From an uncultured Deferribacteraceae bacterium (lineage in GTDB: Bacteria > Chrysiogenota > Deferribacteres > CAMZNJ01), in contig CAMZNJ010000055.1 of assembly GCA_947313825.1 (NCBI GenBank), positions 480 to 64,479 on the forward strand: a DNA stretch of 64,000 nt, written 5' to 3'. Below are positions 21,591-59,573 of the stretch, one piece after another (the stretch's first letter is position 1; every line of letters starts with the position of its first letter). The notes below the pieces were generated by a model. It made no database searches, was not told where the DNA came from, and saw only the letters and a program-made list of their open reading frames with translations. The position numbers and the translations under genes were made by a program.

Positions 21591-21877
21591 CACGCACACG
21601 CCACACGCCTGCACGGCAGTAGCACACACGCACACGCCACACGCCACACGCACACGCCTACACGCCACACGCCACACGCCACACGCCACACGCCTGCACG
21701 GCACACGCCTGCACGGCAGTAGCACGCACGCACACGCCACACGGCACACGCACACGCCTGCACGGCAGTAGCACACACGCACACGCCACACGCCACACGC
21801 CACACGCCACACGCCACACGCCACACGCCTGCACGGCAGTAGCACGCACACACACGCCACACGGCACACGCACACGC
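21591..21877. repeat. Tandem-repeat array (CACGCCA heptamer runs interleaved with 4 extra copies of CCTGCACGGCAGTAGCAC, a near-copy of the dapB 3' end) filling the dapB/kef convergent junction
   Basis: Read directly: copies at 21608, 21708, 21757 and 21838, plus the original at 21576. Minus-strand ORFs 21554..21915 within it are taken as artefacts. Confidence 0.85.
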
Positions 21878-23875
21878 CTACACGGCGAATGTTCGTGCGT
21901 AAATGCCCAGCACACGCTCAGTGGGGAGGGACGTTCCCATTACGATCCTGTCAGCCTCTTCCACAACGTTGTCGTGCTTAGGCATGGGTATGAGACTGTT
22001 CCCTCGAATGATGGCAACAATATGCACCGTTACCGCTGGTCGTTCCTCCAACAGCATCTCCCGCAAGGTTTTCCCCACTAGCATCCCGTAATGTTCTGTG
22101 TGCACGATTGCAAAGTATGAGTTGGGGAGTTCCACTTCGTACCGCTCTAGTAGGTTATCGATACTGAGCTCTAGCGTATTGTTGACGGCTTCTTTGGAGA
22201 TATGCTTATCCAGCACCCTTTTGCTAATCCTAGCTTTCGACTTTTCCGCAATCCCCTTGACGCTAAACATGTGGTAGATCATATCGTACCCCACAAGGTC
22301 GTCGGAAACAATAACATGGCTTGCCCCAACATCCAGCATCCCCTCGGCAACCCCTTTGCTTGTGGACTTTGTGATGACGTAAATATCTTCGTTCATGCTT
22401 TTCGCCGCCAAAATAATATCTTTGGTGATACCCGCATCGGGCACTGAAATACTTATTCCTAGGGCATCACATGCTCGTAAGTGTTTCAGTACCCCCTTTT
22501 TCCTTGCGTCGCCGTAGATAATCGGCTCAGTGGATCGATACCTTTTGACCGTCTCAGGGTTGGTTTCCGTGATAACATAGGTCATGCCAAACCCCTTAGC
22601 GGCACGGGCAAGCATCTGCCCCGTTGGTCCGTACCCTACGATAATAATGTGGTCGTGGAGGTGTTCGTAATCGGGGTTGTCAATGCTTTTGGCGTAAAGA
22701 CCGTGTGCCCAGATACCCTTGAGGTCGGAAAGCTCCATACGCTCCTCTATTTTTGCCGCCAACGACGCTATGAACGGTGTAACGAAAAAACCGGACAGTG
22801 CCAAAGTTACGAGGAAGCTGTGTATTGCGGGGTTTATCGGATGGTAGACGTTGGTCAAGGTCAGAATCACGAGGAAAAACTCCGACAACTGACCCATAAG
22901 CAACCCCACACGCAACGACGACGCCAACGGCAAACCTATCAAAAACGCAACAACCGCAATCACCACAAACTTCAAAAAATAAACAATGGGGAGACTAATC
23001 AACACTATGCCCACGTTGTCCACAATGAAATTAATGTCCAAAGATAAGCCGATAAATATGAAGAAAAACGCAATCATCAAATCCTTAATGGCTAGAATGT
23101 CCGCACCAGCCTCATGGGCAAAATCGGTGTCAGCCAAAACCATGCCAGCTATAAACGCACCAAAAGTGTTGGGGAGCTCCAAAGCCAACGACGCCACAAC
23201 TATCACAGCACACAACCCCAATATGGACATGATGAACATCTCAGGATCACGCTTCTTCGCAACAGTCAAAAGCAGGAACGGTATCACATACCGACCCATG
23301 AAATACACCACTACAACAAGAATAATCGCCTTCAACAAGACAAAACCCATGCCGAGCAAACCATCAGACTCGAAATAAATAGGGATGAACGACAACAAAA
23401 ATACGCTGGCAACATCCTGCATAATCAAAATACCGATGGTAGTGCGACCGAATGGCGTATGTTGCTGTTTGCTCTGCGAAATAATCTTAAACAGCATCGC
23501 CGACGAACTCAAAGCTATCCCAACGCTGATTATCCCCGCAACAACACCCGACAAACCGAAAAGCATGGTCAAAGGTAGAAATACCACCGCCGTAACAAAA
23601 ATCTGAAGCGTGCCCGCAACAAGAACCTCACGCTTTAACTTCGCAATCTCCCTGAACGAAAACTCCATGCCGATACTGAACAACAGCAGGATTATCCCTA
23701 TCTCACCCATAATCTCAATAACATGGGAATAATCCGAACCCTGACCAAGAACAAGACCAGCAATAATGCCTGTCGTAAGGTACGCCAACACTGTGGACAG
23801 ATTGAGAACCTTAAAAATAAAAACTAAAAGACCAGTCAACGCCATCAATAACGCAATATTATAAATTGTATCCAT
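21878..23875 (-). CDS. Monovalent cation:proton antiporter (CPA2/Kef-type) with C-terminal TrkA-N/TrkA-C (RCK) domains
   Basis: A multi-TM N-terminal half is followed by the IIIVGYGPTGQMLARAAK Rossmann motif. Confidence 0.8.
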   Translation of the reverse strand: MDTIYNIALLMALTGLLVFIFKVLNLSTVLAYLTTGIIAGLVLGQGSDYSHVIEIMGEIGIILLLFSIGMEFSFREIAKLKREVLVAGTLQIFVTAVVFLPLTMLFGLSGVVAGIISVGIALSSSAMLFKIISQSKQQHTPFGRTTIGILIMQDVASVFLLSFIPIYFESDGLLGMGFVLLKAIILVVVVYFMGRYVIPFLLLTVAKKRDPEMFIMSILGLCAVIVVASLALELPNTFGAFIAGMVLADTDFAHEAGADILAIKDLMIAFFFIFIGLSLDINFIVDNVGIVLISLPIVYFLKFVVIAVVAFLIGLPLASSLRVGLLMGQLSEFFLVILTLTNVYHPINPAIHSFLVTLALSGFFVTPFIASLAAKIEERMELSDLKGIWAHGLYAKSIDNPDYEHLHDHIIIVGYGPTGQMLARAAKGFGMTYVITETNPETVKRYRSTEPIIYGDARKKGVLKHLRACDALGISISVPDAGITKDIILAAKSMNEDIYVITKSTSKGVAEGMLDVGASHVIVSDDLVGYDMIYHMFSVKGIAEKSKARISKRVLDKHISKEAVNNTLELSIDNLLERYEVELPNSYFAIVHTEHYGMLVGKTLREMLLEERPAVTVHIVAIIRGNSLIPMPKHDNVVEEADRIVMGTSLPTERVLGIYARTFAV

Positions 23876-23993
23876 AAGTAACTAAAATAGTACAAAGGGT
23901 ACTTTTTTGCAACCACTTTAAACACTTTAATCACTAAAATACTACTAAACAAAAATAAATATCTCGCTAGAAGGAATATCTGTAATTTATACG

Positions 23994-24022
23994 TTGCAAC
24001 ACGCACCGTTTATGTGTATAAT
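23994..24022 (+). promoter_or_regulatory. Near-consensus sigma70 promoter (-35 TTGCAA, 17-bp spacer, TG-TATAAT -10) for the membrane-protein gene at 24142
   Basis: Read directly: TTGCAA at 23994-23999 and TATAAT at 24017-24022, preceded by TG. Confidence 0.5.
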
Positions 24023-24141
24023 CGTTGCATGTGAGTATGGAAATACGCGAAACAAAACCACTCACATCACCCAAACCACTAACTAAAATATATCTAAGTA
24101 GCTACAAAAACAAAAACTTGAACGCTACTGGAGGAACAACA

Positions 24142-24840
24142 ATGTCATCAAGAACATCCAGAGCCGTAAAACGCCACAACAGTGCCAAAAACAAACAGCA
24201 CAACGAACACATCCCAACACCAAACACCATGGCAACTGAAGGCGAAATCATCCAAACACCAAGCAAACTCGCAACAATGGCAACAAAATACAAACTGCAA
24301 CTCATGATCGTAGCACCAATACTACTCGTGCTCATCGTACTCGCAACAACAACATACCTCAACACAAGCAACAAAAACTCAACACCTGTGGCGTACGGAC
24401 AATTCTTTGCCGCACTCGACAACTACAACCCAAATACCGGCAACTTTACTCTCAATAAAGCGTACGAAAATGCCAAAAACTCGGTGGACACGAAAACAGG
24501 CGACTACCTCACATACATCGTCGGAGTAGTCAAGTACGAAAACGCAAACTCCACACAGGAAGGGTTACAACTACTGCAAACCATCGTAACCGAACCATAC
24601 AAATCCGCAGCACAAGGGTATATTGCTGACGCAACAGGAAGCCTCGACGACGGCTACAATGGCGACTCAGCCGACAAAAACTCCCTCGAAACACTCATCC
24701 CGTCCCTATGGGATTACCGACTAATCGTAAGCAACATCACTAACATCGACCCCAAAGAGCAGATGGAATTTGTGGGCGAACACCCCGAATCAAACTTGGC
24801 TGCACTGCTCAACGTTATTGCAGCAGGGGAGATGGAGTAG
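24142..24840 (+). CDS. Hypothetical membrane-anchored protein (single N-terminal TM helix, ~170-aa extracytoplasmic domain)
   Basis: A GGAGGA ribosome-binding site precedes the ATG at 24142. The TM segment is LQLMIVAPILLVLIVLATTTYL. No recognisable catalytic motif was found. Confidence 0.5.
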   Translation: MSSRTSRAVKRHNSAKNKQHNEHIPTPNTMATEGEIIQTPSKLATMATKYKLQLMIVAPILLVLIVLATTTYLNTSNKNSTPVAYGQFFAALDNYNPNTGNFTLNKAYENAKNSVDTKTGDYLTYIVGVVKYENANSTQEGLQLLQTIVTEPYKSAAQGYIADATGSLDDGYNGDSADKNSLETLIPSLWDYRLIVSNITNIDPKEQMEFVGEHPESNLAALLNVIAAGEME

Positions 24841-24847
24841 CCGACAG

Positions 24848-25265
24848 TGGCTGACGTGGTGGCGTGGCTGGCGTGGTGGCGTGGCTGGCGTGGTGGCGTG
24901 GCTGACGTGGTGGCGTGGCTGACGCGGTGGCGTGGCTGGCGTGATGGCGTGGCTGACGTGGTGGCGTGGCTGACGTGATGGCGTGGCTGACGTGGTGGCG
25001 TGGCTGACGTGGTGGCGTGGCTGACGTGGTGGCGTGGCTGACGCGGTGGCGTGGCTGGCGTGGTGGCGTGGCTGACGTGGTGGCGTGGCTGACGTGGTGG
25101 CGTGGTGGCGTGGCTGACGTGGTGGCGTGGCTGGCGTGGTGGCGTAGCTGACGTGATGGCGTAGCTGACGCGGTGGCGTGGCTGGCGTGGTGGCGTAGCT
25201 GACGTGATGGCGTGGCTGGCGTGGCTGACGTGGTGGCGTGGCTGGCGTGGTGGCGTGGCTGACGC
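24848..25265. repeat. 17-nt tandem repeat (GGCGTGGCTGACGTGGT and variants, ~24 copies)
   Basis: Read directly. Minus-strand ORFs 24714..25325 and 24815..25552 give 17-aa-periodic products and are judged artefacts. Confidence 0.85.
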
Positions 25266-25290
25266 ATCGGGAATAAGAATACGAACATAC

Positions 25291-25338
25291 AAATAGGGGG
25301 GGGTATCAACAAACGTGTTGTCCATACCCCCCCTATTT
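25291..25338. terminator. Bidirectional intrinsic terminator hairpin (G8/C7 stem, 17-nt loop, T-runs on both sides) between convergent genes
   Basis: Read directly: aaataggggggggtat-caacaaacgtgttgtcc-ataccccccctatttta. Confidence 0.7.
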
Positions 25339-25548
25339 TACATTTACAACACGGCAACACCTGTGCAACACGGCAACACCTGTGCCACACGGCAACACAT
25401 GTCCCACGCTCTCTGCATCTTACAACACGGCGACACCTGTGCAACACGGCAACACCTGTGCCACACGGGAACACATGTCCCACACGGCAACACATGTTCC
25501 ACGCTCTCTGCATCTTACAACACGGCAACACCTGTGCCACACAAGCGT
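25339..25548. repeat. 19-nt tandem repeat (ACACGGCAACACCTGTGCC and variants), organised as a ~96-nt higher-order unit x2.3, ending 7 nt from the ackA stop
   Basis: Read directly from the sequence. Confidence 0.85.
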
Positions 25549-25554
25549 GCACGC

Positions 25555-26790
25555 CTACTTAAACGAGTAGCCCAAATCCATATGACTCTTGTAGGTGCCA
25601 CGGATAACAGCCGCCGTATCCTCAATAATCACAATCTCTTCATTAGTAGGTATTACGTAAACCTTAACCTTCGATTCCGGTGCCGAAACCAATGTTTCAC
25701 CGTGTTTGCCCAGTGTGTCCATATTTTTCTTAGTATCGAGAACAATACCTAGCCCCTCGAGACCCTCAAGTGCTTTTTCGCGAAGTGGACCTGAGTTTTC
25801 GCCCACGCCAGCAGTGAATACGATGGCGTCCACACCACCTAACACGGCCATGTACGATCCGATATATTTCTTGATACGGTATGTTTCCATGTTAAACGCG
25901 AGTGCACACCTTGGATCGTCGAGGTTCCCTTCAATATCTCGCCTGTCGGAATACTGTTCGCTAATGCCTAGCACTCCCGATTCTTTGTTGAGTATGTTGA
26001 GAACTTCGTCGGCATTTTTGCCTAGTTGTTGTGATAGCAGTTGCACGACAGTTGCATCAACGTCGCCACTACGTGTGCCCATTACGAGTCCTTCCAGCGG
26101 TGAGAGTCCCATGGATGTGTCGACGCTTACGCCGTTTTTGATGGCACAGGCAGACGCACCGTTCCCGATGTGCATGGATATGATATTGCTTGCCTCGGCA
26201 GGTTTGCCCATTAGTTTGGCAGCCCGTTTTGCGACGTAAAGGTGTGATGTGCCGTGGAATCCGTATCGACGCACGGCGTAATCGCGGTAGTAGGACAGTG
26301 GTAGTGCGTACATGTATGCATGTTCGGGTAGTGTTTGGTGGAATGCGGTGTCAAACACGGCAACGTTGGGGAGTTTTGGCAGTAGTGTACGGATGGCGTT
26401 GATGCCGATGATGTTGGCGGGGTTGTGTAGGGGTGCGAGGTAGGATATTTTTTCTAGGTTGGCGATAACCTCGTCGTCAATGAGTACGCTCCCTGCGTAA
26501 GTTTCGCCACCATGGACGATGCGGTGTCCAACGGCGTTTATTTCGTCCAAGGAGGACAGTACGCCAAAATCTTTGTGTGTCAATAGTTTTAGTACGTAGT
26601 CTATTGCTTGGGCATGATCGTCGAAGGGGTGTTCCCCTTTTTCGGTATGGTTTTGTGTTTTGTGGCTGAATATGGAGCCACCGATGGCGATACGTTCTAC
26701 CAAGCCGGTTGCGAGTAGTTGGTCTGTGTCTTGGTTGTGTAGTTGGTACTTCAGCGACGAACTACCCGAGTTTAATACTAGTATAATCAT
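25555..26790 (-). CDS. ackA: Acetate kinase
   Basis: MIILVLNSGSSSLKYQL... is the AckA N-terminus. ASKHA-fold motifs are present. The gene lies downstream of pta. Confidence 0.9.
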   Translation of the reverse strand: MIILVLNSGSSSLKYQLHNQDTDQLLATGLVERIAIGGSIFSHKTQNHTEKGEHPFDDHAQAIDYVLKLLTHKDFGVLSSLDEINAVGHRIVHGGETYAGSVLIDDEVIANLEKISYLAPLHNPANIIGINAIRTLLPKLPNVAVFDTAFHQTLPEHAYMYALPLSYYRDYAVRRYGFHGTSHLYVAKRAAKLMGKPAEASNIISMHIGNGASACAIKNGVSVDTSMGLSPLEGLVMGTRSGDVDATVVQLLSQQLGKNADEVLNILNKESGVLGISEQYSDRRDIEGNLDDPRCALAFNMETYRIKKYIGSYMAVLGGVDAIVFTAGVGENSGPLREKALEGLEGLGIVLDTKKNMDTLGKHGETLVSAPESKVKVYVIPTNEEIVIIEDTAAVIRGTYKSHMDLGYSFK

Positions 26791-26874
26791 GCTATCCCCT
26801 TGCAAGGTTGCGTTAATAAGGTTGTGTTCATTATCATTATTGTTGTGCTTACAGTCTGCCTTTACGTGTTCCCC

Positions 26875-27858: not shown

Positions 27859-27946
27859 ATTTTTAATGCCCCCAAATTATATTATAAATTTTAATATATT
27901 CTATTATTTCCATAAGTACACAGGGGAGCGTCGCAAAATATGGACA

Positions 27947-27997
27947 CAAAAATACCCCTTCTATCATAATAGTTTATAATAAAAGGGGTTATTTTTA
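27947..27997. terminator. Possible intrinsic terminator for nhaC (CCCCTT/AAGGGG stem, long loop, T-tracts)
   Basis: The inverted repeat caaaaataccccttc...aaaggggttattttt was read directly. The loop of about 22 nt is long. Confidence 0.3.
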
Positions 27998-28059
27998 CAA
28001 CAATTAAAATACAATTAGTGTATTTTATTCAGCAGCCTTGCATCCAAAAGCACTGCCGA

Positions 28060-29709: not shown

Positions 29710-30035
29710 AACCTGAGCGAATTTTGTTATATTTTTACGCTGGCAACCGATTGCTGCACCGGTAGTAAGTTATAAGACCTACTATTTTACCACAACCGGC
29801 TAGCTAAGTCAATAACTAAATGTCAAGGGTAAAAACTTGTAGCTTACTTGCCAAATATGAACTAGAATACTGTACAATTGTTCATAGTTTTTGTAAAATA
29901 AACAGCTAATTGCAGACTTACAACAACTACCAACAACTTACAACGTCCTCGCAACGGACTACTGCAGTACTAACATACGAAATACGGAAATACGGAAATA
30001 CTATTGCCATGTTTTAATAAAGGAGTACAGGCACT

Positions 30036-31680: not shown

Positions 31681-31832
31681 GGTCGGCGGTCGGCGGTCGT
31701 GGTCGGCAGTCGTGGTCGGCGGTCGTGGTCGGCGGTCGTGGTTGGCGGTCGGCGGTCGTGGTCGGCGGTCGTGGTCGGCGGTCGTGGTCGGCGGTCGTGG
31801 TCGGCAGTCGGCGGTCGTGGTCGGCGGTCGGC
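31681..31832. repeat. 13-nt tandem repeat (GGTCGGCGGTCGT/GGTCGGCAGTCGT, ~12 copies) in the rpe/gmhB convergent junction
   Basis: Read directly. ORFs 31531..31948 and others inside it are taken as artefacts. Confidence 0.85.
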
Positions 31833-31866
31833 AACAAGAACACACGGAACACACGCAACCCGCGAG

Positions 31867-32466
31867 CTATCGTATGTGTAGCACCCCGTCGTTCACACCT
31901 GCAAGTAGCTGTCTCATGGTGGCAAAGTGGTGGGTAGCCTCGTCGCACCCGTCAACGCCAATTTTCACACGCGTGCCAACGCCAGCAGTAAGCCCAGCCT
32001 CAATGTCCCTATTTGAGTCGCCAACAATCACCGACTTTGCCACTGAGATACCTAGCTGTGCGGCACTCTCCAGTATCATACCAGGATTAGGCTTGCGACA
32101 TGGTTGCGTTGCGTCTAGATAGGGGCAGTGGTATACGTTTTCCTGAGGTATGTGTATTCCGTTTCGCTCGAATATACCAAGCATATGTTTTGTTATGTTT
32201 TGGAAGTCTTCTTCTGAGAAGTACCCCCTTTCGATGCCCGACTGATTTGTTACGATTACGATGGTGTAGTTTTTGTCCAGAAATCTTTTACATATGGGGA
32301 ATATTTCGGGGTAGCAGAAGAAGTCTTCTATTCGGTGGACGTAACCGTGATCCACGTTGATTATGCCGTCTCTGTCGAGGAACAGCCCTTTTTTGCCCAC
32401 AGCTGTTCCTATGGCGTTAGTGGCGTCTTTGCGTTTGCTCCACCTGTCTTTATATTTTTGTATCAA
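31867..32466 (-). CDS. gmhB: D-glycero-D-manno-heptose 1,7-bisphosphate phosphatase (HAD-IIIA)
   Basis: FLDRDGIIN and CxCRKPNPGM motifs. The gene is tail-to-head with phoU, overlapping it by 17 nt. Confidence 0.75.
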   Translation of the reverse strand: MIQKYKDRWSKRKDATNAIGTAVGKKGLFLDRDGIINVDHGYVHRIEDFFCYPEIFPICKRFLDKNYTIVIVTNQSGIERGYFSEEDFQNITKHMLGIFERNGIHIPQENVYHCPYLDATQPCRKPNPGMILESAAQLGISVAKSVIVGDSNRDIEAGLTAGVGTRVKIGVDGCDEATHHFATMRQLLAGVNDGVLHIR

Positions 32467-33124
32467 GTTTGCGTCCTGTAATTGCGTAGTAGGTTAGGTC
32501 GGCCATGTTGACACAGTGGTCGGCGATGCGTTCTAGTCGTGAGGAGGAGCTAATCATGAAGAAGGCGAAGTCTTGGTAGTCGGTCAGTGTTTTTTTGACC
32601 CCTTCAGCTGTGAGGCTAGTGAATGCGTCTTGTATGAGCATTTTTCGCAGATTGTCCATTTCGTCGTCCATTGTTATGACCTGTTGTGCGAGTTTTGGTG
32701 TCCAATCCACGAACGATTCGATTACGAGCTCCAGCATATTGACTGATGTTTCGCTCATTTTGATGATGGCATTTTTCTGTATGCTGCTGAATGGTACTTC
32801 CACGTCCATCATTCTTTGGTAGAATTTGCGACAGTGCTCACCGATACGAATCAGGTCGAGTGTCATCTGCATCATTGCGATAATCGCCCTTAGGTCTGAG
32901 GCTTTCGGCTCAAATTTTGCGATGATGAAGATGGCGTCTGTTGTGAGGTGGTCTCCTATTGCCGATACGTTGCTGGACATTTTGCGTATTTCGCGGTAAC
33001 GCTTGTACTTGTTTGTTTCCATGTCATTGGAGATAATTTGTAGCATTTGCGTGCTTACTGTTACCATCTCTTTTAGGTCGTGTTCTAGTATAGTTAAATT
33101 TTCCCTTAGCAATTTATAAACCAT
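32450..33124 (-). CDS. phoU: Phosphate transport system regulator PhoU
   Basis: A two-repeat PhoU-fold protein immediately downstream of pstB. Confidence 0.85.
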   Translation of the reverse strand: MVYKLLRENLTILEHDLKEMVTVSTQMLQIISNDMETNKYKRYREIRKMSSNVSAIGDHLTTDAIFIIAKFEPKASDLRAIIAMMQMTLDLIRIGEHCRKFYQRMMDVEVPFSSIQKNAIIKMSETSVNMLELVIESFVDWTPKLAQQVITMDDEMDNLRKMLIQDAFTSLTAEGVKKTLTDYQDFAFFMISSSSRLERIADHCVNMADLTYYAITGRKLDTKI

Positions 33125-33173
33125 TACCCCTTCCTTTGAGCAAGCTACATTTGTGTTACGCCATTTTGCTTGC

Positions 33174-33202
33174 TGCGTTTGTGGCGTTTGTGGCGTTTGT
33201 GG
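33174..33202. repeat. Short tandem repeat (GCGTTTGTG x3) in the pstB-phoU spacer
   Basis: Read directly from the sequence. Confidence 0.8.
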
Positions 33203-33204
33203 CT

Positions 33205-33987
33205 TTACCCGAACATGCCACGAACGTATCTTTCGGTCATTTCTTCTTGTGGTTGTGTGAATAGTTTGTCGGTGCCACCGTATTCGATGAGTTCCCCTAG
33301 GTACATGAACGCCGTGTAGTCTGAGAGTCTTGCTGCTTGGTGCATGTTGTGGGTAACCATCACGATACTTACCTTTTCTTTGAGTTCTACGACGAGTTCT
33401 TCGATTTTGTTTGTTGCGATGGGATCCAGTGCTGATGTTGGTTCGTCGAGGAGTAGTATTTCGGGTTCGACGGCTAGTGCACGAGCGATAACGAGTCGTT
33501 GTTGTTGTCCACCTGAGAGTCCCATGGCACTGTGTTTGAGTCGTTCTTCCACTTCGTTCCAGAGTGCGGCGTCTTTGAGTGCTTTTTCCACTCGGTCAGC
33601 TATTTCTCTTCTGTTTCGTAATCCGCCGAGTCTGAGTCCGTAAGCGATGTTGTCGAATATGCTCATGGGGAATGGTGTTGGTCGTTGGAAAACCATCCCT
33701 AATCGGCTACGTAACTTGATGAGGTCTTCCTCTTTGAGTAGGTTTTCGCCGTTGTGAATAATCTCCCCTTCGTACCTGTTACCGGGGTAGAGGTCGTGCA
33801 TGCGGTTGAAGGTTCGTAAGAATGTGGTTTTCCCGCACCCTGAGGGTCCGATTAGTGCTGTTACGCGACCTTCGTATATATCCATTGTAACATTTTTTAA
33901 TACTTGTGTGTTGCCGTAAAAGAAGTTCAGCCCCCGAACGGAAAGGATAGTAGTCTCTTCGGCACTCCTCACTCTACCTATTGCCAT
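33205..33987 (-). CDS. pstB: Phosphate ABC transporter ATP-binding protein
   Basis: Walker [10 protein letters not shown] and signature LSGGQQQR. The start is chosen at M14 of the listed ORF to limit the overlap with pstA. Confidence 0.9.
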
Positions 33988-34852
33988 CGTTACCATACCT
34001 CCAAGATACCAAGAGCCTGCTGACAATATTAATAAAAAGCACGAATGCCGTAATAATAAATGCCCCTGCCCATGCTAAGGATTGCCAATTTTCATAAGGC
34101 GAGCCTGCATAGTTAAATATTGTAACTGTGAGGGACGCCATGGGTTCTGTTAAGTCTGTTGTAAAATAGTTGTTGTTGAATGATGTGAAGAGTAGTGGTG
34201 CTGTTTCCCCTGCAACTCTGCCTATGGCCAAAATTACACCGGTGATGATTCCGCTAGCTGCTGAGCGGTAAACAATGGAGAAGATTACCTTGTAGTAAGG
34301 GGCACCAAGGGCAAAACCTGCCTCACGAAGCTCCTTGGGTACAAGGTTCATCATGTCTTCGGTAATACGCAAAACAACGGGGAACATGATAATTGCCAAC
34401 GCGAGGGAGCCTGCAAGGGCACTGTAGGTGCCGAAAGGAACAACAGCAATGGCGTAAACAAATGTGCCGATAACGATGGAGGGGATACTCAGCATCATGT
34501 CTGAAAAAATTGTTATGAAGGTTTTAATGCGTGAATTTTTGCCGTACTCAGCCAGAAATGTGCCCGCAAGGATACCCAACGGAATACCGAGAAGAATCGC
34601 CAACGCCGTAATGATTAGGTGCCCAACAATGGCAAAACGCAAACCACCAAGCTCAGGCATAAATGGAGGAACCTGATCTTGAGTGAATATCATGGGGCTA
34701 AGTGCGGCGATACCATTGATAAACACATCAACGGTAATAAATGCCAAAAATGCAATACCGATAATGGCAAAAACACTAAAGACAAACATCCATAATGCAC
34801 TTTTCAACTTGCGATAAGAGTATGTATTCACTGCTTCAACCCTCCCTGCCAC
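33974..34852 (-). CDS. pstA: Phosphate ABC transporter permease PstA
   Basis: An ABC type-I permease with the EAAxxLGA-type motif ([10 protein letters not shown]). Confidence 0.85.
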
Positions 34853-34890
34853 AAACTAATGTGGGAAAATAACACCAAATATAATCAATA

Positions 34891-35886
34891 TTATGAAAAC
34901 CTATTGGCACGTTTGTGAATGTAGTACTTAAACAGAGCCAAAATTATGAAATTGGCCATGAAAAGAATGGTCGCAAGGAAAAATAAGGACGATCGGTGCA
35001 AGCCATCACTTTCGTTAAACTCGTTGGCCAAAACAGAAGTAATGGTGGAGTACGGCGAATACAATGTTTGCAAAGCCGCGTAGCTATTGCCGATGATAAA
35101 CGCGACGGCCATGGTTTCACCCAAGGCACGACCTAACGCAACAATTATGCTACCCATGATACTTATGCTACTGTAAGGGATCATAACATCACGAACAACC
35201 TCCCACCTTGTGGCACCTAGCCCGTAAGCCGATTCTTTGATGACGCGGGGAACACGGGCAAACGTTTCAACAGCAACCATGGTAATAAAAGGCAAAACCA
35301 TAATCGCAAGGATAATCCCTGCCGTCAGGATATTAACACCACTAGTGTTGACACAGGGGTCGGCACCACCGCAATCTACAGAGAAAAAATGACCAACAAA
35401 TGGCAACCAAGAAAGTGTGAAATCTAGGAATGGCTCAATAAACTTGTTGGAAAAACTGGAAAAAGTGAACAAAGCCCACATACCGTAGATAATGGAGGGG
35501 ATGGCCGCCAAAAGCTCTATGGTTGTGGTGATAGGACGCTTTAACGCTTTGGGGCATACTTCAACAATGAAAATCGCAATACCGATACCGAAGGGAACGG
35601 CGATGACTATGGCGATGATGGTGGTGATGAGGGTTCCCATGAGGGGGCGAAATGCACCGTAAATACCCTGAGACGGTGCCCACACTGTACCAAAAATAAA
35701 GTCGATGAAGCCTATTCCACCAATGGCCTCTCTGGAGTAATACAGCAGGGTAAAGAATATGGAAAAAATAAGCACAAGGCTCAGCAAAGCACTAACGAAA
35801 CTGATGGACTTAAAAGCACGATCAAATGTTTTAACCACAAAGATTCCCTCTACGAATGAGTAACTCAATAATCTCGAAACGCTCAC
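34891..35886 (-). CDS. pstC: Phosphate ABC transporter permease PstC
   Basis: A permease with ESAYGLGATRWE. Its position upstream of pstA-pstB-phoU fits. Confidence 0.85.
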   Translation of the reverse strand: MSVSRLLSYSFVEGIFVVKTFDRAFKSISFVSALLSLVLIFSIFFTLLYYSREAIGGIGFIDFIFGTVWAPSQGIYGAFRPLMGTLITTIIAIVIAVPFGIGIAIFIVEVCPKALKRPITTTIELLAAIPSIIYGMWALFTFSSFSNKFIEPFLDFTLSWLPFVGHFFSVDCGGADPCVNTSGVNILTAGIILAIMVLPFITMVAVETFARVPRVIKESAYGLGATRWEVVRDVMIPYSSISIMGSIIVALGRALGETMAVAFIIGNSYAALQTLYSPYSTITSVLANEFNESDGLHRSSLFFLATILFMANFIILALFKYYIHKRANRFS

Positions 35887-45931: not shown

Positions 45932-45995
45932 CCATAACACATACAGCACAGTAGCACAGTAGCACAGTAGCACAGTAGCTGTGTGTGGTGTTATG
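45932..45995. repeat. Imperfect palindrome (CCATAACACATACAGC / GCTGTGTGTGGTGTTATGG) enclosing a CACAGTAG x4 tandem repeat, overlapping the stop of the upstream chaperone gene
   Basis: Read directly from the sequence. Confidence 0.75.
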
Positions 45996-47022
45996 GGTTT
46001 ATGATTGTGTTGATTACCGTTCCGTCTGGTATGTAGTATTGTATATCAGTAGTAGTGTACAATATTTCAATATAGTCGTCTACATAAGAGTTCACCTTTT
46101 GGTGGTAGAGGGATTTGCCAATACTGTCGCGTAGCAGGTCTAAGGGGATAAAGTTTTTGCTACTGTTGTACACCCCTAGCACTTGGTAGATGTGGTGCAC
46201 GCCCCCTTGGTCGTATAGGTGCGTTTCACCTTGAGGCATTCCGTCTGCAGGGAGGATACCCTTGGGGGTACTCCCTTGCAACAAAAACCCTTCCTGAAGA
46301 AAAACGTTACTGTACCCTTCATCATACCTACGTGCCACCTCTTCGAAATCGTACTCTTTGAGCTCTTCAAGTATCTCTTGTTGCAGTGCGTTGCTATCGG
46401 TAACAATACCTAGGATATGGCGAATGGGGTAGTTGTCGAACTCGTTTTTCATCCTATCGTATTCTTGGGCAATTTCATCAGACGAGATGGTTATCGCCCT
46501 GTAGAAGTTGTCCACCATGTAACCGTGGATAATGCTGTCTTGGTAGGTTATCCCCAAGAAGCTATTGAACACCTGCGAGTTGCTGAGAATTCTGACGGTG
46601 TCCGCCTTGGAGGCATTCTCTTCCAGTGCGTTCCTCACTTCGCTTTCGGCTACGGGGGGTATGGTTGAGCCCCCCCGCTGAGCATCCTGATAGATAAGGT
46701 TATAACGCACAAAATCATGGAGATAAAACTGAAAAATCTCAGTGCTGTTTAGGAGTTTGGGTGAGATGTCGCCCATTTTGAGGGACATGTAATCAGAAAA
46801 ATCTGAAGAGTAGTACATCTTGCCGTTAATAGACACAAACTTGACATGACTAGCAGCATACCGCTGAGCCAACACGTACGTAAGACCAGCAACAAGAAGC
46901 ACCAGTATCGAAACAGAAACAATCAGAGCACGATACTTCTTTGCCGTAACAAAAATGCTATTCCTCATACCCACGTTGGATGTATCCTTGGCTTGTGTCG
47001 CTAACTTATGCATAGAAAGCAC
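45991..47022 (-). CDS. Peptidyl-prolyl cis-trans isomerase (parvulin/PpiC-type) with SurA-like N-domain, membrane-anchored
   Basis: An N-terminal TM helix is followed by a parvulin segment (...NYPIRHILGIV...GGVHHIYQVLGV). Confidence 0.6.
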   Translation of the reverse strand: MLSMHKLATQAKDTSNVGMRNSIFVTAKKYRALIVSVSILVLLVAGLTYVLAQRYAASHVKFVSINGKMYYSSDFSDYMSLKMGDISPKLLNSTEIFQFYLHDFVRYNLIYQDAQRGGSTIPPVAESEVRNALEENASKADTVRILSNSQVFNSFLGITYQDSIIHGYMVDNFYRAITISSDEIAQEYDRMKNEFDNYPIRHILGIVTDSNALQQEILEELKEYDFEEVARRYDEGYSNVFLQEGFLLQGSTPKGILPADGMPQGETHLYDQGGVHHIYQVLGVYNSSKNFIPLDLLRDSIGKSLYHQKVNSYVDDYIEILYTTTDIQYYIPDGTVINTIINP

Positions 47023-50873: not shown

Positions 50874-50910
50874 AAAACCACACCTACTCAAAAAGGGGTT
50901 CACAGGGGTT

Positions 50911-51504
50911 ATGATTCCAGATAATACTGGTGATAAAGCTATCATCGATAAGGTTTTGAGTGGATCAACAAACGATTTTGAGGCACTTGTTTTAAAGTAT
51001 CAAAATCCTTTGCTAGCATTAGTAATGCGAATCACTCGCAATGAAGATGCGTCCAAGGACATTGTGCAGAATAGTTTCGTGGCAGCCTACATCAACCTGA
51101 GGTCCCTCAAAGACCCAAACAGCTTTTACCCATGGTTGAGACGAGTTGCCATCAATAACTCATACTCGTACTTCAGAACCGTCAAACACCAATACTCTTT
51201 CGCCGACGGTGAACATCACGACAACGTCATAAACAGCATTGTCGCAGAGAAAAACCCCGAAGATATTCAAGCAAACACCGACGTGTCCGAAATACTAGAA
51301 GCTATTTACAACACTCTCCCCGAACGGTTGCAAACAGTTTACTACTTACGCGAGGTGGAGGGGTTGTCGTACGAAGAGATAGCCGAAGCACTGTATATCC
51401 CCGTTGGTACGGTGCGTAGCAGGCTGTTCAACGCTAGACGTATTTTTAAAGATAAACTAATAAAAAAAGGAGTTATTTCAGATGCAGCCACCTCGATTAA
51501 GTAG
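50911..51504 (+). CDS. RNA polymerase ECF-type sigma-70 factor
   Basis: Region 2 is DIVQNSFVAAYINL. Region 4 is LPERLQTVYYLREVEGLSYEEIAEALYIPVGTVRSRL. The ATG at 50911 (AGGGG ribosome-binding site) is preferred over the 50731 start, which would overlap the previous gene. Confidence 0.85.
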   Translation: MIPDNTGDKAIIDKVLSGSTNDFEALVLKYQNPLLALVMRITRNEDASKDIVQNSFVAAYINLRSLKDPNSFYPWLRRVAINNSYSYFRTVKHQYSFADGEHHDNVINSIVAEKNPEDIQANTDVSEILEAIYNTLPERLQTVYYLREVEGLSYEEIAEALYIPVGTVRSRLFNARRIFKDKLIKKGVISDAATSIK

Positions 51505-52033
51505 CTGTGAAGAGTACAAACACAACATCTCTACACTCATGGACGACGCATTGACTCAACAGGATGAGGAATCACTGATGCAACACACACAGAGCTGTTC
51601 CCACTGCTTTTCAGAGCTCCAAGCACAAAAACAAATATGTAGTCTCGTGCGTTCTAATATCCATTTCCTTGCCGCAAACCCCATGTCCCAAGAAGAAGGC
51701 ACCTCCATGGCAAGCTCCATTATGGCTCGAATAGCACAGCAAGATAAGGTTATGGACGACTATCGCAAACACCCAGCTAATCACCTTGGCAGACTTAACC
51801 CTAGCCATAACGCCACACAAGGCAACAACAACAATAGCGACAACAGTACCTCTCACCCAAAATATGAATTTCTTTTTAACCCTCGCCCACTAATCATTAC
51901 CTCTGCGGCGAGCCTTTTATTACTTGTGGGGAGCAGTACCAGCATGCTCTACTCGTTCTCCAGCATACAGCACGAGTCTTTAAACGACGGGTCATTGGTT
52001 ATCATGGTGTCGGATATTGATATTGAAAAGTAG
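51482..52033 (+). CDS. Anti-sigma factor, zf-HC2 type, single-pass membrane protein
   Basis: The HTQSCSHCFSEL motif is of the HxxxCxxC type. The TM segment is LIITSAASLLLLVGSS. The gene overlaps the end of the sigma gene. Confidence 0.7.
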   Translation: MQPPRLSSCEEYKHNISTLMDDALTQQDEESLMQHTQSCSHCFSELQAQKQICSLVRSNIHFLAANPMSQEEGTSMASSIMARIAQQDKVMDDYRKHPANHLGRLNPSHNATQGNNNNSDNSTSHPKYEFLFNPRPLIITSAASLLLLVGSSTSMLYSFSSIQHESLNDGSLVIMVSDIDIEK

Positions 52034-52083
52034 GCTAGTCAACAGCTACTAGTCAACAGCTACTAGTCAACAACCGTTGACCC
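52034..52083. repeat. Tandem repeat (TAGTCAACAGCTAC x3) ending in the palindrome GTCAAC-AACC-GTTGAC, immediately after the anti-sigma stop
   Basis: Read directly from the sequence. Confidence 0.8.
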
Positions 52084-52154
52084 TCGCCCATATTGCCCCA
52101 TACAGCTTCACATTGCCACACCCTTTGTGCCCACGATAATTATTCCCCCATGTC

Positions 52155-52182
52155 TTGCATTTTCCCTTCAGTTTTGTATAAT
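52155..52182 (+). promoter_or_regulatory. Near-consensus sigma70 promoter (-35 TTGCAT, 16-bp spacer, -10 TATAAT) upstream of htrA
   Basis: Read directly: TTGCAT at 52155-52160 and TATAAT at 52177-52182. Confidence 0.45.
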
Positions 52183-52221
52183 AAACCGCACCCTATTTTT
52201 CACTCAGGAGGATATATCACA

Positions 52222-53784: not shown

Positions 53785-53886
53785 CAACAACTAGTCAACA
53801 CTACTGTGGCAGTACCTTTTACCGGGCACTGCCACACACCTAAACACACAGCCAAGTACACAGCCCGACTTACGGGGAGAACACAT

Positions 53887-55578: not shown

Positions 55579-55706
55579 TGGCTAGAGTGGGCACAGTGGC
55601 TAGCCCCATCGGGGGCACACGCCCTGCACACACCGTCGCACACACATTCCACACATTGGCACAAAATAATAACACTTCCCGTAACTTCTGATGTATAATA
55701 CTTACC

Positions 55707-56708
55707 ATGTCTACCCCTACCATACGAATCATAACTAAACTTGTGAAAAACACTCTGGATGCCTTACTGCTACTCCTTGGCGTCAGTGTTGTTGTGTTTT
55801 CGCTCTTGTATCTAACCCCCGGTAATGCCTTGCTCATTCAGGTTGGTGTTGGATCAGATCGTGCCCTCACCGAGTCGTATCAGGCACTGTTTTCCCTCAA
55901 TACTTCACCTGTCATACAGTATTTTGAGTGGTTGCAAGGTCTGTTGCGAGGTAATTTCGGCGTTTCGTACGTTTACCATGCCCCTGTTTTCACCATTGTT
56001 CTCCATGCCTTAGGTGTTACAGCCGCAATTGCTAGTGTTGCAATGATTATTGCTGTTGGCGTATCCTTGCCCCTCGGTCTTTACCTTGGGGGGAGCGGTT
56101 CACAGGTGTTACGTGCTCCCCTTAGTGGTATTATTACCCTTGGCGTGGCTGTTCCGCAATTTTTATGGGGCATACTCCTTCTTTACTTATTCGGCAACGT
56201 GTTTTCCGCTTTTGTACCAGGTGTGTACGCCCCCCTGAGCAGCATTCTCCCCATGGCAATGGCAGGAAGCAGCGGGAACAACGCCATCCCCGCACTAGCA
56301 TACCTCTTAGCACCCGCATTGGCACTCGCCCTGCCCGCCATAGCAATACTCAGCCGGTACACCTACAACTCTGTTCGCGAACTAAACGCACAACCCTTCA
56401 TGCTCGCACTACAGTGTCGTGGCATCGGCGGTTGGCAACTCTTACGTCGCCATACCCTACGCAACCTCCTTGTGGGGTACACCTCGTTCAGTGGCATCCT
56501 CCTCATCGATCTCCTTGCAGGGTCAGTGCTCGTTGAGTACATCTTCAACATTCCGGGGCTAGGCAACACACTCGTTACAGGTATTCATCAGCGAGACACC
56601 CTTCTTGTGCAAGGTGCTGTGCTGTATGTTGCGTTTCTGGTGGTGGTCATCAACAAAATCACCGACGGACTCTACTACATACTCAACCCCAAGCTAAGGA
56701 GAGCCTAA
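55707..56708 (+). CDS. ABC transporter permease (DppB/OppB-like)
   Basis: A six-TM type-I permease following the family 5 binding-protein gene. Confidence 0.85.
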   Translation: MSTPTIRIITKLVKNTLDALLLLLGVSVVVFSLLYLTPGNALLIQVGVGSDRALTESYQALFSLNTSPVIQYFEWLQGLLRGNFGVSYVYHAPVFTIVLHALGVTAAIASVAMIIAVGVSLPLGLYLGGSGSQVLRAPLSGIITLGVAVPQFLWGILLLYLFGNVFSAFVPGVYAPLSSILPMAMAGSSGNNAIPALAYLLAPALALALPAIAILSRYTYNSVRELNAQPFMLALQCRGIGGWQLLRRHTLRNLLVGYTSFSGILLIDLLAGSVLVEYIFNIPGLGNTLVTGIHQRDTLLVQGAVLYVAFLVVVINKITDGLYYILNPKLRRA

Positions 56709-57563
56709 ATGCACCACAGCCAAGAATCAGCACACTTACCACCACTCACCCTCGCGTTAGGCATCATCCTTGCAGGCATACCCCTAGCCATGGGACTAAT
56801 CTCACTGCTCTACACACCATTCGAACCCAACCTCATCATCGCAAACGCCGTTTCAGCACCCATAACGCCTACGCACCCCCTTGGAGGCGACTACCTCGGA
56901 CGAGATACACTCAGCAGACTCATGACTGGAGCACGCATCACAATCACGATGGCAACAATGGCAATAACTACTGCAACCATTACCGCTTTTGCCCTCAGTG
57001 CAACATCCGTGGCAGCACTCAACACGCCAACACCATCACGCACAGGACAACTTACACACAAAACAATCACCTTCCTCACAAACACACTAATGGGAATACC
57101 ATCCCTACTACTAGCACTAGCTGTGGTATCTATCCTAGGGGGAGGAATCGCAAACACAACCATCGCCATAACCATCATGCTCGTACCGGGGCTCACAAGA
57201 GTAATGCAGGCAGCTCTAATACAGGTGTACGCTGAAGACTACATCAAAGTAGCCAAAACTTGGGGAGTCAGCAACATCAACATCGCACTCAAACACGCCC
57301 TGCCAAACGCGGCACCAAGCATCATCGTCGCAATACCAATCTACATGAGTGCAGCCATACTCGTCGAAGCAGGACTCAGCTACCTCGGACTCGGCGTAGC
57401 ACCACCAACACCAAGCTGGGGAATAATGCTCAACCAATCAATACCACACATCAACGCACAACCCATGGCAGCCATCGCACCCGCAACAATGATAATCTTC
57501 ACAATACTAGGGCTAAACCTGATTAGCGACGGACTAAACCAAAAACTCAGGGGTAAAAAATGA
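56709..57563 (+). CDS. ABC transporter permease (DppC/OppC-like)
   Basis: A type-I permease with an AAGGAG ribosome-binding site. Confidence 0.85.
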   Translation: MHHSQESAHLPPLTLALGIILAGIPLAMGLISLLYTPFEPNLIIANAVSAPITPTHPLGGDYLGRDTLSRLMTGARITITMATMAITTATITAFALSATSVAALNTPTPSRTGQLTHKTITFLTNTLMGIPSLLLALAVVSILGGGIANTTIAITIMLVPGLTRVMQAALIQVYAEDYIKVAKTWGVSNINIALKHALPNAAPSIIVAIPIYMSAAILVEAGLSYLGLGVAPPTPSWGIMLNQSIPHINAQPMAAIAPATMIIFTILGLNLISDGLNQKLRGKK

Positions 57564-59275
57564 CCCAAAAACCGAAACAATCAAAACAACCACTGCTTAC
57601 CCTACAAAACCTCAACACAACCCTCTACGCAAACAACTCAACAACAAAACTACTCCAAAACGTTGACCTACAACTCAACGAAAACGAAATAATGGCCCTC
57701 GTCGGACTCTCGGGAAGCGGAAAAACAATGCTGTGGAAATCCATGGTCGGTGTACTGCAACACAAAACAACAAAACAACCAAACAACAGCTTCATCACCG
57801 AAGCAACAATGGACGGCTCCATCACAAACAACACTCAAACACAATCACTAAACAAACTACTCGGACAAAAAAACGGCATCGGTATCATATTCCAAGAACC
57901 ACACGCATCACTCGACCCACTCATGACAATAGGGGAACAAATAAGCGAAGTCCTCAAGCTACACAGTAGCGAGCCACACAGTAGCAAGCCACACAGTAGC
58001 AAGCCACACCGTCGAAAAAAATTGACCAAACAGGAGCTAACAAACAAAGTACACGACGCCCTAACACAAGTCGAACTCAACCCAAACTACAACAACCGAT
58101 ACCCACACCAACTCTCTGGCGGTGAAGCACAACGCGTCGCAATCGCACTGGCAATCGCAAACAAACCCAAACTCATCATCGCTGACGAACCAACTTCAAA
58201 CCTAGACGAAACAAACCAAACACTCATCATCAACATGCTACAAAAACTCTGCCAACAAAATAGCACATCCCTGATTCTCATTACCCACAACATCGCCATG
58301 GCAGCATCTGTTGCACAAAAAATCGCCATTCTACAAAATGGCACCATCATCGAAACAATAAACAACATACCAAACAACAACATGGACAAACTCATCGCCA
58401 ATGCCAAACAAAAACACACCAAAAACCTACTCATCGCAAACCAATTTCAACCAAAACACAAAACAACCCACAACGCTGACAACAAAAAAGCACGATTCTT
58501 CACCGTGCTCGAAAACAATACCCAAACAAATACAAACAATCCACTAACGCCAAAAGGGGAAAATATTACGCAAACAATGTGGGTCAAAGGTGCCACAAAT
58601 CAACAAATTAACCTCAACAAATGCACCAACGCCATCGAAATCAAAAACCTTACCAAAATATACAACAACCGTAAAGGGAACGCCACAGCACTGAAAAACA
58701 TCAACCTAAACATACCCGCAGGAAAAATCACAACACTAGTCGGACAATCAGGGAGAGGCAAATCAACCCTCGCAAACATACTCGCAGGGCTGGAAACACC
58801 CTCTGAAGGAACAATCACCGTATGGGGAGAAAAAACAAACCCAACACAACGCTACAAACATATCAGAATCGTAACACAATACCCAAACACAATGCTCAAC
58901 CCAAAAATGACCATCAAAAATATACTGCGTAACAGTGCCACAAACAACTACAACCCCGCAATACACCCATACCACGTGAAATACCTGATGAACGAATTCA
59001 TACTGCCAACAAACACACTCAACAAATACCCACACCAACTCTCTGGCGGACAAAAACAACGTATCGCAATAATGACAGCACTCATGGGGGGAGCAACAAT
59101 CCTCATCGCAGACGAAATCACTTCCGCCCTCGACGCCAACGCAGCCGCAACAATACTAAATATGCTACTGGACATCAACGAACGAATGGGCACAACAATA
59201 CTGCTCACAACACACAACACAGCAATAATTAAAGGGTTTGCAGACCATACCGCAACGCTGGATAGCCACGGCTAA
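57560..59275 (+). CDS. ABC transporter ATP-binding protein, fused double ATPase (DppD-DppF-like) with low-complexity inserts
   Basis: Two Walker A motifs (GLSGSGKT, GQSGRGKST) and two signature motifs (LSGGEAQR, LSGGQKQR). An in-frame HSSEPHSSKPHSSKPH repeat is present. Confidence 0.85.
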   Translation: MTQKPKQSKQPLLTLQNLNTTLYANNSTTKLLQNVDLQLNENEIMALVGLSGSGKTMLWKSMVGVLQHKTTKQPNNSFITEATMDGSITNNTQTQSLNKLLGQKNGIGIIFQEPHASLDPLMTIGEQISEVLKLHSSEPHSSKPHSSKPHRRKKLTKQELTNKVHDALTQVELNPNYNNRYPHQLSGGEAQRVAIALAIANKPKLIIADEPTSNLDETNQTLIINMLQKLCQQNSTSLILITHNIAMAASVAQKIAILQNGTIIETINNIPNNNMDKLIANAKQKHTKNLLIANQFQPKHKTTHNADNKKARFFTVLENNTQTNTNNPLTPKGENITQTMWVKGATNQQINLNKCTNAIEIKNLTKIYNNRKGNATALKNINLNIPAGKITTLVGQSGRGKSTLANILAGLETPSEGTITVWGEKTNPTQRYKHIRIVTQYPNTMLNPKMTIKNILRNSATNNYNPAIHPYHVKYLMNEFILPTNTLNKYPHQLSGGQKQRIAIMTALMGGATILIADEITSALDANAAATILNMLLDINERMGTTILLTTHNTAIIKGFADHTATLDSHG

Positions 59276-59297
59276 GGGCAAGATGACCACAGGACGG

Positions 59298-59573
59298 ACG
59301 TGCGTGTGTGTGCTGACGCTGGACGTGTGCGTTGCTGACGCTGGACGTGTGCGTTGCTGACGCTGGATGCGTGTGCGTTGCTGACGCTGGACGTGTGTGT
59401 GTTGCTGACGCTGGATGCGTGTGCGTGCTAACGCTGGATGCGTGTGCGTGCTGACGCTGGACGTGTGTGCGTGCTGACGCTGGACGTGTGTGCGTGCTGA
59501 CGCTGGACGCGTGTGTGTTGCTGACGGACGGCACCGCGGACGGCAACCACGGACGGCACCGCGGACGGCACCA
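59298..59573. repeat. 22-nt tandem repeat (TGCTGACGCTGGACGTGTGCGT variants, ~10 copies) followed by GACGGCACCGCG x4, filling the ABC-ATPase/dnaB convergent junction
   Basis: Read directly. ORF 59229..59594 within it is taken as an artefact. Confidence 0.85.

Follow-up and report, generated by a model that had tools for sequence, protein, structure and literature searches.

The DNA considered here, 64,000 nt of contig CAMZNJ010000055.1 (GCA_947313825.1) from an uncultured Deferribacteraceae bacterium, is referred to below as the window, and our subject is the tandem-repeat arrays that occupy the junctions between its convergent genes. The window is part of the genome of Candidatus Rimicarispirillum, a Deferribacterota gut symbiont of Rimicaris vent shrimp, which was named (Microvillispirillaceae, Deferribacterota) in a study of the Rimicaris exoculata gut and has genomes of 1.25-1.36 Mb with 46.7-47.6% GC (PMC9636832). 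Four pairs of genes in the window point toward each other: dapB and kef, an unnamed 232-aa gene and ackA, rpe and gmhB, and an ABC ATPase gene and dnaB. NCBIfam, by which gene families were assigned, confirmed these flanks as dapB, a CPA2/Kef transporter, ackA, rpe, gmhB, a two-domain ABC ATPase and dnaB, and gave no family match for the 232-aa gene, which a first-pass annotation of the sequence had called a membrane protein. Tandem arrays were called with Tandem Repeats Finder (TRF) and were also read directly in the sequence. At the junctions, TRF reported head-to-tail units with periods of 7-23 nt, present in 4-42 copies with 71-90% matches.

The four convergent gaps consist largely of array (1331 of 1518 bp, 88%), with individual values of 100% at dapB-kef, 87% at the junction of the 232-aa gene with ackA, 86% at ABC-dnaB and 76% at rpe-gmhB. 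By comparison, arrays cover 0 of the 927 bp in the four divergent gaps and 177 of the 3788 bp (5%) in 31 co-directional gaps. A further co-directional gap (746-913), additional to these 31, contains a 118-bp array. Arrays of at least 100 bp are found in all four convergent gaps and in 1 of the 36 other gaps of the window (Fisher p = 5.5e-5). Tandem repeats make up 4.2% of the window, whereas in 79 unrelated bacterial loci (1.25 Mb) the median share is 0%; the 64-kb window holds nine arrays of at least 100 bp, and those loci together hold only 10. The GC content is 64-72% in the convergent gaps and 33-39% in the divergent gaps, with 47.6% for the window as a whole.

The arrays are also placed in a regular way relative to stop codons. 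At convergent junctions, the distance between array and stop codon is 0-26 nt on one side and 0-36 nt on the other. Each of the six co-directional arrays starts 1-11 nt past the stop of the upstream gene, with 9-57 nt left free ahead of the next gene. According to a hand calculation on these six arrays, uniform placement in the gaps would give such starts approximately 1e-6 of the time. In the dapB-kef junction, the units of array A1 include copies of the last ~14 nt of dapB together with its TAG stop, and the kef stop codon falls inside an array-like unit. Because A1 repeats the 3′ end of dapB, the arrays appear to grow from local sequence and to press directly on coding ends. Inside genes a different restriction was observed: the period is a multiple of three in 14 of 15 arrays (6, 9, 12, 15, 18, 21 or 33 nt), compared with 4 of the 12 intergenic arrays. 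The near-absence of other in-gene periods points to a general repeat-generating process that is filtered by selection.

These measurements bear out most of what the first-pass annotation had described. Its central claim, that all four convergent gaps are filled by arrays, holds at 76-100% occupancy, with every listed array recovered by TRF, and so do its descriptions of AT-rich, array-free divergent gaps and of small co-directional arrays just past a stop codon, the largest of which is that at 791-908. The lengths it gave for dapB-kef (287 bp) and for the ackA junction (about 700 bp, with two arrays and a hairpin) agree with the measured 287 and 714 bp. The other two lengths needed correction: rpe-gmhB, given as 152 bp, is a 198-bp junction with a 150-bp array, and ABC-dnaB, given as 276 bp, is a 319-bp junction with 273 bp of arrays. 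The unit range of 13-22 nt is too narrow for the periods found, and the statement that arrays lie directly against both stop codons is true of the closest cases (0 nt) and fails where gaps reach 26 and 36 nt. Cores of alternating purines and pyrimidines, said to be shared among the arrays, are present in those starting at 21591 and 59302 and amount to 0-12% of bases elsewhere.

Tandem arrays and associated features in the window (positions count from its first letter; > and < give gene direction)
Feature	Positions	Placement	Unit or structure	Composition	Call
A1	21591..21877 (TRF 21591-21884)	fills whole dapB> <kef junction, 287 bp	7-nt CACGCCA-type units in 49/100/149-nt higher-order repeats	A+C-rich on + strand (C 0.49, G 0.20)	TRF
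A2a	24847..25264	starts 6 nt past stop of unnamed 232-aa gene	17-nt unit GTGGCTGACGTGGTGGC, 25.6 copies	G+T-rich in sense of unnamed 232-aa gene	TRF
Hairpin	25291..25345	between A2a and A2b	GC stem, A-rich 5′ flank, T-rich 3′ flank
A2b	25347..25542	ends 12 nt before ackA stop	19-nt units in 95-nt higher-order repeats	G+T-rich in ackA sense	TRF
A3	31681..31830	rpe> <gmhB junction	13-nt unit GGTCGGCGGTCGT, 9.9 copies	G+T-rich in rpe sense	TRF
Mini-repeat	31838..31859	adjoins gmhB stop	GAACACACG, 2.4 copies	G+T-rich in gmhB sense	TRF
A4a	59302..59523 (TRF 59302-59526)	ABC ATPase> <dnaB junction	23-nt unit GCGTGTGCGTGCTGACGCTGGAC, 9.7 copies	G+T-rich in ABC gene's sense; alternating purine/pyrimidine cores	TRF
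A4b	59524..59574	near dnaB stop codon	12/25-nt units CGGACGGCACCG		TRF
Co-directional array	791..908 (gap 746-913), 118 bp	5 nt past stop of 901-aa gene 914-3619 (-), 45 nt before next - strand gene, which lies left of the gap and runs off the window end	(GCGTT)n / 18-nt units	A+C-rich in transcript sense	TRF
Mini-array	3677..3716	1 nt past stop of - strand gene 3718-4236			TRF
Mini-array	19590..19624	2 nt past stop of + strand gene 18655-19587; upstream of dapA	CAACGAACACAG, 2.9 copies
Mini-array	33175..33203 (29 bp)	1 nt past pstB stop, within pst-phoU operon	GCGTTTGTG, 3.2 copies
Mini-array	45945..45979	11 nt past stop of - strand gene 45991-47022	AGCACAGT, 4.4 copies
Mini-array	52035..52072	1 nt past stop of + strand gene 51482-52033	CTAGTCAACAGCTA, 2.7 copies

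Related assemblies allowed the arrays to be compared within and between species. L081 (NCBI GCA_947313785.1, contig CAMZNL010000046.1) matches the rpe product of the window exactly and shares 98.5-99.6% identity with the window across 21 kb (~99.8% inside genes), and L082, a Logan contig from run ERR7998035, carries an identical rpe product as well. A sister species is represented by L001 ("uncultured Deferribacteraceae bacterium M_Rainbow_MAG_00001"), the AckA of which is 94% identical to that of the window at a nucleotide identity of ~88% in genes, and by L088, which covers the dnaB-ABC and bla-iclR junctions. The assemblies of the window, L081 and L001 stem from the R. exoculata gut study cited above. 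L086 and L087 (Logan SRR23346875 and SRR23346874) belong to a third, more distant relative with an AckA identity of 83% and, judging by run-number date, may have been produced in PRJNA931729, a project on the gut of Rimicaris kairei. The sequence of the window's own species past the right end of the window (L089) was reached via GyrB and then via a beta-lactamase-family homologue. Other searches gave less: exact-protein look-up returned no record for the 901-aa protein or a 287-aa hydrolase, look-ups with the radical-SAM protein, DnaB and L9 returned only short Logan contigs that end at arrays or repeat-rich genes, and the sole match in a scan of JGI metagenomes with a two-unit A3 pattern was a chance match to an unrelated high-GC contig.

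L089 contains a fifth convergent junction, between bla and iclR (11801-12135, 335 bp), of which 85% is array: 33 copies of TTGTCGG, a short GC hairpin and 2.1 copies of a 25-nt unit. In the L088 counterpart (320 bp), arrays cover 97% and have units quite unlike these, and the dnaB-ABC junction of L088 (220 bp) is 91% array, made up of two arrays that are both unlike those of the window. The firmly annotated divergent gaps of L089 (5553-5837 and 16619-16751) have weak repeats of 70 bp at most, and arrays are present in two of its co-directional gaps, one of 35 bp that begins 8 nt past a stop codon and one of 142 bp that begins 20 nt past one. When the window and L089 are pooled, arrays of at least 100 bp are present in 5 of 5 convergent and 2 of 51 other gaps (p = 5.5e-6). 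The placement of the arrays at convergent junctions is thus real, significant and reproducible. We considered L089 2943-3037 as a possible array-free convergent junction and regard it as doubtful, since it depends on three short open reading frames (ORFs) without family matches opposite a 295-aa ORF; it is probably an annotation artefact. In this region (2181-3068), the public calls are the three + strand ORFs (116, 55 and 29 aa), while the 295-aa ORF on the - strand has the A+C-rich sense strand usual here, and the annotation is probably on the wrong strand.

The first-pass annotation had suggested comparing array lengths between strains, and this comparison revealed two- to four-fold differences. 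Between the window and L081, dapB-kef measures 287 and 92 bp, the junction of the 232-aa gene with ackA 714 and 375 bp, and rpe-gmhB 198 and 149 bp, with the same units in both; A2a is reduced to just a few copies of its 17-nt unit in L081. The rpe-gmhB junction shortens further to 123 bp in L001 and 52 bp in L085, an assembly in which two junctions are down to 52 and 55 bp with remnants of the units left, and the array between pstB and phoU is 29 bp long in the window vs ~100 bp in the sister species. Alignment of the window with the sister species succeeds for the genes and the promoter-bearing divergent spacers and fails for the junction arrays. The sister-species arrays consist of other units that have fragments such as GGTCGG and GCTGACG in common with those of the window, which fits descent with rapid turnover.

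Five short-read contigs (L001, L082, L083, L086 and L087) end inside arrays or within ~50 nt of the preceding stop codon. L083 ends 51 nt past the dnaB stop, which indicates that the short-read assembly breaks at the ABC-dnaB junction, and L086 and L087 end 0-34 nt past the ackA stop in a CTGCACG-type repeat. As contigs end at arrays, the copy numbers in these metagenome-assembled genomes (MAGs) are lower bounds; the junction arrays are a main reason why MAGs of these symbionts are fragmented, and MAGs probably understate array lengths. The mismatch-repair gene mutS is present (L089 1-2133), so complete loss of mismatch repair is not a simple explanation of the instability. Minisatellite instability depends on functions other than mismatch repair.

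The ackA junction contains, between its two arrays, one of only two strong intrinsic terminators in the 64-kb window, the other being at 27954-27989. The RNA of this hairpin has predicted folding energies of -27 and -33 kcal/mol for the two strands (z = -3.4 and -4.4), and our own terminator scan gave -25 and -27 kcal/mol and showed a T-rich tail on each strand; that scan replaced a consensus scan whose matches were no commoner than in shuffles and which missed the long-loop hairpin. Both sister-species assemblies keep the hairpin, with the same outer G/C stem and a changed inner stem that still pairs (z = -7.6 and -8.5). Judged by sequence and predicted folding, it is a conserved bidirectional intrinsic terminator. 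Its conservation between A2a and A2b means that these arrays lie in 3′ untranslated regions (UTRs) and that termination at this junction does not rest on them. The likeness to bidirectional intrinsic terminators ends with this hairpin, as hairpin plus U-tract architecture was found inside none of the arrays, and the bla-iclR junction of L089 has no recognizable canonical intrinsic terminator.

In composition, the arrays of the window have a strand skew between G+T and A+C of 0.29-0.56. On the C-rich strand, the fraction of C is 0.36-0.53 and that of G 0.18-0.23, corresponding to a C/G ratio of 2.0-2.9 in all except the 51-nt A4b (1.2). The units differ at every locus, and 9-mers are shared in two array pairs only, A1/A4a and A1/A2b. 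An Rfam scan of the whole window gave no matches at the gathering score, and a tRNA/tmRNA scan of the window found none. Replication strand was rejected as the cause of array polarity, since the G+T-rich strand is the + strand in four arrays and the - strand in three (window orientation). An attempt to detect the mutational bias behind the strand skew by polarizing the substitutions between the window and L081 with the sister species as outgroup was abandoned, because 0-13 substitutions per gene are too few.

A strand skew is likewise seen in the genes themselves. At third codon positions, the sense-strand value of (A+C)-(G+T) ranges from +0.69 to -0.54 between neighboring genes of the window, as illustrated by 4205-5903 vs 15581-18479 and by pstC/pstA (33974-35886) vs pstB/phoU (32450-34026). 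Fourfold-degenerate sites have a similar range (-0.57 to +0.64), and the third-position skew correlates with that at codon positions 1+2 (r = 0.85), meaning that the skew also shapes amino-acid composition. The standard deviation between genes is 0.29-0.34 in the window, L001, L081 and L085, compared with a median of 0.11 (maximum 0.22) for 58 other bacterial loci. The + strand genes of the window are all A+C-rich in the sense strand, and the - strand genes are bimodal. Local inversions were rejected as the source of these gene-to-gene switches, because the pstC-pstA-pstB-phoU order is canonical and yet the skew switches inside it.

Several coding sequences have repeats of their own. In the 901-aa ORF, in-frame arrays occur at six or more separate places (periods of 9, 12, 15, 18, 33 and 45 nt; ~700 bp in total), and the Logan contig L084 breaks inside this ORF, the N-terminus of which resembles a response regulator by eye only. 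In L089 (6555-8408), ribosomal protein S2 and elongation factor Ts form one 617-aa ORF, joined by a linker of ~100 low-complexity Ala/Thr/Pro/Glu residues in which short 9-nt repeats occur, and this ORF could be a gene fusion made by an in-frame intergenic array. In L088, a (CCACGA)n / 21-nt array of ~135 bp (8798-8935) forms the 3′ end of a zinc-transporter ATPase gene, where it is in frame and alters the C-terminus.

Based on these results, we favor, with a probability of roughly 55%, the explanation that the arrays are locus-specific, GC-rich, hypervariable minisatellites, i.e., variable-number tandem repeats (VNTRs), which arise by slippage and persist only past stop codons, where they are tolerated. 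Across the whole genome, tandem duplications of local seed sequence would continually form and change in size through replication slippage or unequal recombination, and selection would remove the arrays wherever a function is disturbed. Inside genes, only in-frame arrays would survive; in promoter-bearing divergent spacers, none would; and in co-directional gaps, short arrays would remain against the upstream stop codon, with the 10-60 nt before the next gene kept free. Because convergent junctions need neither a promoter nor a ribosome-binding site, they could be filled from stop to stop except for any terminator hairpin. The arrays would then be transcribed as 3′ untranslated tails, and any effects on termination or mRNA stability would be secondary. 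In support of this explanation, arrays are also found inside likely operons (between pstB and phoU, and in the gap upstream of dapA), where a terminator would do harm.

Several observations weigh against tolerance as the full account. All five convergent junctions are filled, although a reduced genome of ~1.3 Mb (PMC9636832) should lose useless DNA by deletion bias. The arrays are 64-72% GC and the other spacers 33-39% GC, and a composition so unlike neutral spacer DNA calls for either rapid renewal or selection. At three of the four convergent junctions of the window, neither the consensus scan nor our own scan recognized an intrinsic terminator, so those transcripts must end through some feature of the arrays or their surroundings. 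The strand skew is strong in every array and tends to follow the genes: in 4 of 5 junctions the segment adjoining each gene is G+T-rich in the sense of that gene, the exception being the dapB side of dapB-kef, whereas in the co-directional arrays A+C predominates in the transcript sense in 7 of 9 cases. Tolerance alone would not lead one to expect such regularity, which, with few independent loci, is suggestive only. In addition, short-read MAGs can collapse arrays, so that the length variation may be partly technical, and the sample is small, at ~85 kb of one species.

A rival, functional explanation is that the arrays act as transcription stops or insulators for convergent genes and replace hairpin terminators lost in a reduced genome. 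In one direction, the C-rich, G-poor and unstructured RNA would be a candidate loading site for Rho; in the other, the strongly folded G/U-rich RNA could pause the polymerase, act as a series of weak terminators or shield the mRNA 3′ end from exonucleases. The scarcity of strong intrinsic terminators in the window, the C/G ratios of the C-rich strands and the tendency to a fixed polarity relative to the genes agree with such a role, as does the persistence of arrays at the same junctions in at least two species, to which the contig breaks suggest adding a third. RNA from the A/C-rich strand has a minimum free energy of -16 to -34 kcal/mol per 150 nt and, for three of four arrays, a centroid energy between 0 and -4.5 kcal/mol, i.e., it is nearly unstructured, and the composition of a Rho utilization (rut) region (at least 70-80 nt of C-rich, G-poor, weakly structured RNA) is present on this one strand only. 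The G/U-rich strand gives RNA that folds at -57 to -75 kcal/mol per 150 nt, but for its composition this folding is mostly no better than that of shuffles (z = -0.6 to -3.2). Moreover, in junctions with two arrays the C-rich RNA is made after the G/U-rich array and the hairpin, so that Rho would come into play only within the opposing gene. Comparable arrays within operons, and the two- to four-fold variation in length down to a junction of only 52 bp in L085, are also difficult to reconcile with a terminator. In favor of such a role, Escherichia coli repetitive extragenic palindromic (REP) elements, which have the same placement bias, act as partly Rho-dependent terminators and mRNA stabilizers (bioRxiv 10.64898/2026.03.23.713779). 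On the strength of the complete occupancy, the GC-richness, the scarce hairpins and the polarity, we keep this sequence-derived functional explanation as a tentative minority possibility. A more specific version, in which the G-rich non-template tail stalls or releases the polymerase via RNA structure or an R-loop and the opposite direction loads Rho, so that each array would insulate both directions and arrays within operons would be maintained with the A+C-rich orientation, in which they would do no harm, appears unlikely.

A role at the level of DNA is more doubtful still. Here the arrays would act as Z-DNA, G-quadruplex or R-loop-prone tracts, or as GC-rich topological barriers that absorb supercoils or stall polymerases, with instability as a by-product. 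The non-template strand past most convergent genes is 39-53% G, a composition that favors R-loop extension, but the co-directional arrays have the opposite polarity and are C-rich on this strand. Alternating purine/pyrimidine runs of at least 8 nt take up 43% of the bases in A1 (longest 16) and 56% in A4a (longest 14), but 0-12% in the other five arrays. Two-tetrad GG patterns occur mainly in A2a and A3, where GG-N-GG is dense, with a few in A1 and A4b, but no array has a G3+ quadruplex motif. As a driver of slippage, the hairpin potential of single-stranded DNA is unremarkable compared with shuffles, and such unremarkable folding also speaks against a structural role. The Z-DNA version, raised by the first-pass annotation, is the weakest because only two of seven arrays have the alternating tracts. 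Z-DNA, cruciforms and R-loops are favored by negative supercoiling, which builds up at divergent junctions; convergent junctions gather positive supercoils, so that Z-DNA is disfavored there. The arrays could also be assembly artefacts, with low-complexity reads mis-extended at contig joins, and it is true that short-read contigs break at them and that copy numbers differ between assemblies. We consider this highly improbable, because the same units and flanks recur in independent assemblies (the window, GCA_947313785.1 and Logan ERR7998035) and homologous arrays exist in two sister-species MAGs, leaving only the copy number in doubt. Of the interpretation in the first-pass annotation, the non-random placement therefore stands, having been replicated in the sister species and outside the window, whereas the terminator, polymerase-collision, Z-DNA and R-loop functions that it proposed are weakened by the operon arrays, the kept hairpin and the turnover.

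The arrays are most likely a known kind of element, VNTRs with a placement shaped by selection. They resemble the bacterial VNTR or minisatellite loci used in multiple-locus VNTR analysis in their head-to-tail 7-23-nt units, their mostly intergenic and locus-specific occurrence, the differing copy number between close strains and the in-frame arrays in genes. Unlike at those loci, every convergent spacer examined here is filled, and the arrays reach ~4% of the sequence and are uniformly GC-rich and strand-skewed. The 17-nt unit of A2a contains GCTGGCGTGGTGG, which we take to resemble the E. coli Chi site GCTGGTGG; minisatellite cores have long been noted as Chi-like. A CRISPR array was excluded, since the units are contiguous without unique spacers. 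Compared with rut regions, one array strand similarly yields at least 100 nt of RNA with a C/G ratio of 2-2.9 and almost no structure, but tandem organization is not a rut feature and the orientation of the arrays is not consistently the useful one. REP elements are spread by the RAYT transposase. REP elements and bacterial interspersed mosaic elements of E. coli share the placement bias, with ~60% of REP elements lying between convergent genes, 40% between genes in tandem and 1% between divergent pairs (bioRxiv 10.64898/2026.03.23.713779), and proposed roles of REP as 3′ UTR terminators and mRNA stabilizers. REP elements are imperfect palindromes with one genome-wide consensus, whereas the arrays here are direct repeats with neither palindromic units nor a shared consensus. 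The G-rich heptamer repeats of Xanthomonas and Nostoc are ~90% intergenic, follow the upstream ORF at a mean distance of 28 nt, much nearer to it than to the downstream ORF, and differ in length and sequence between the same gene pairs of related species (Rehm et al. 2015, PMC4692102); the stop-proximal placement and the between-species variation are thus alike. Those heptamers, however, are one dispersed motif family (GGGAATC or GGGGAYT) that is G3-quadruplex-capable and found for the most part between same-direction ORFs (PMC4692102), whereas here each locus has its own 7-23-nt unit, the G3 motif is missing and convergent gaps are the main site.

Neither the R. exoculata (PMC9636832) nor the R. 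kairei symbiont genome papers mention tandem repeats or skew. For work on these symbionts, the arrays have a practical side, in that they break short-read assemblies of the genomes at convergent junctions and are ready-made VNTR markers with which strains can be tracked between shrimp hosts and vent fields. They also illustrate how the sites at which repeats can persist in a compact genome depend on selection. If it is true that the arrays stop transcription, they would constitute an unusual repeat-based bacterial terminator system and would offer a natural test of how convergent genes avoid mutual read-in when hairpins are scarce.

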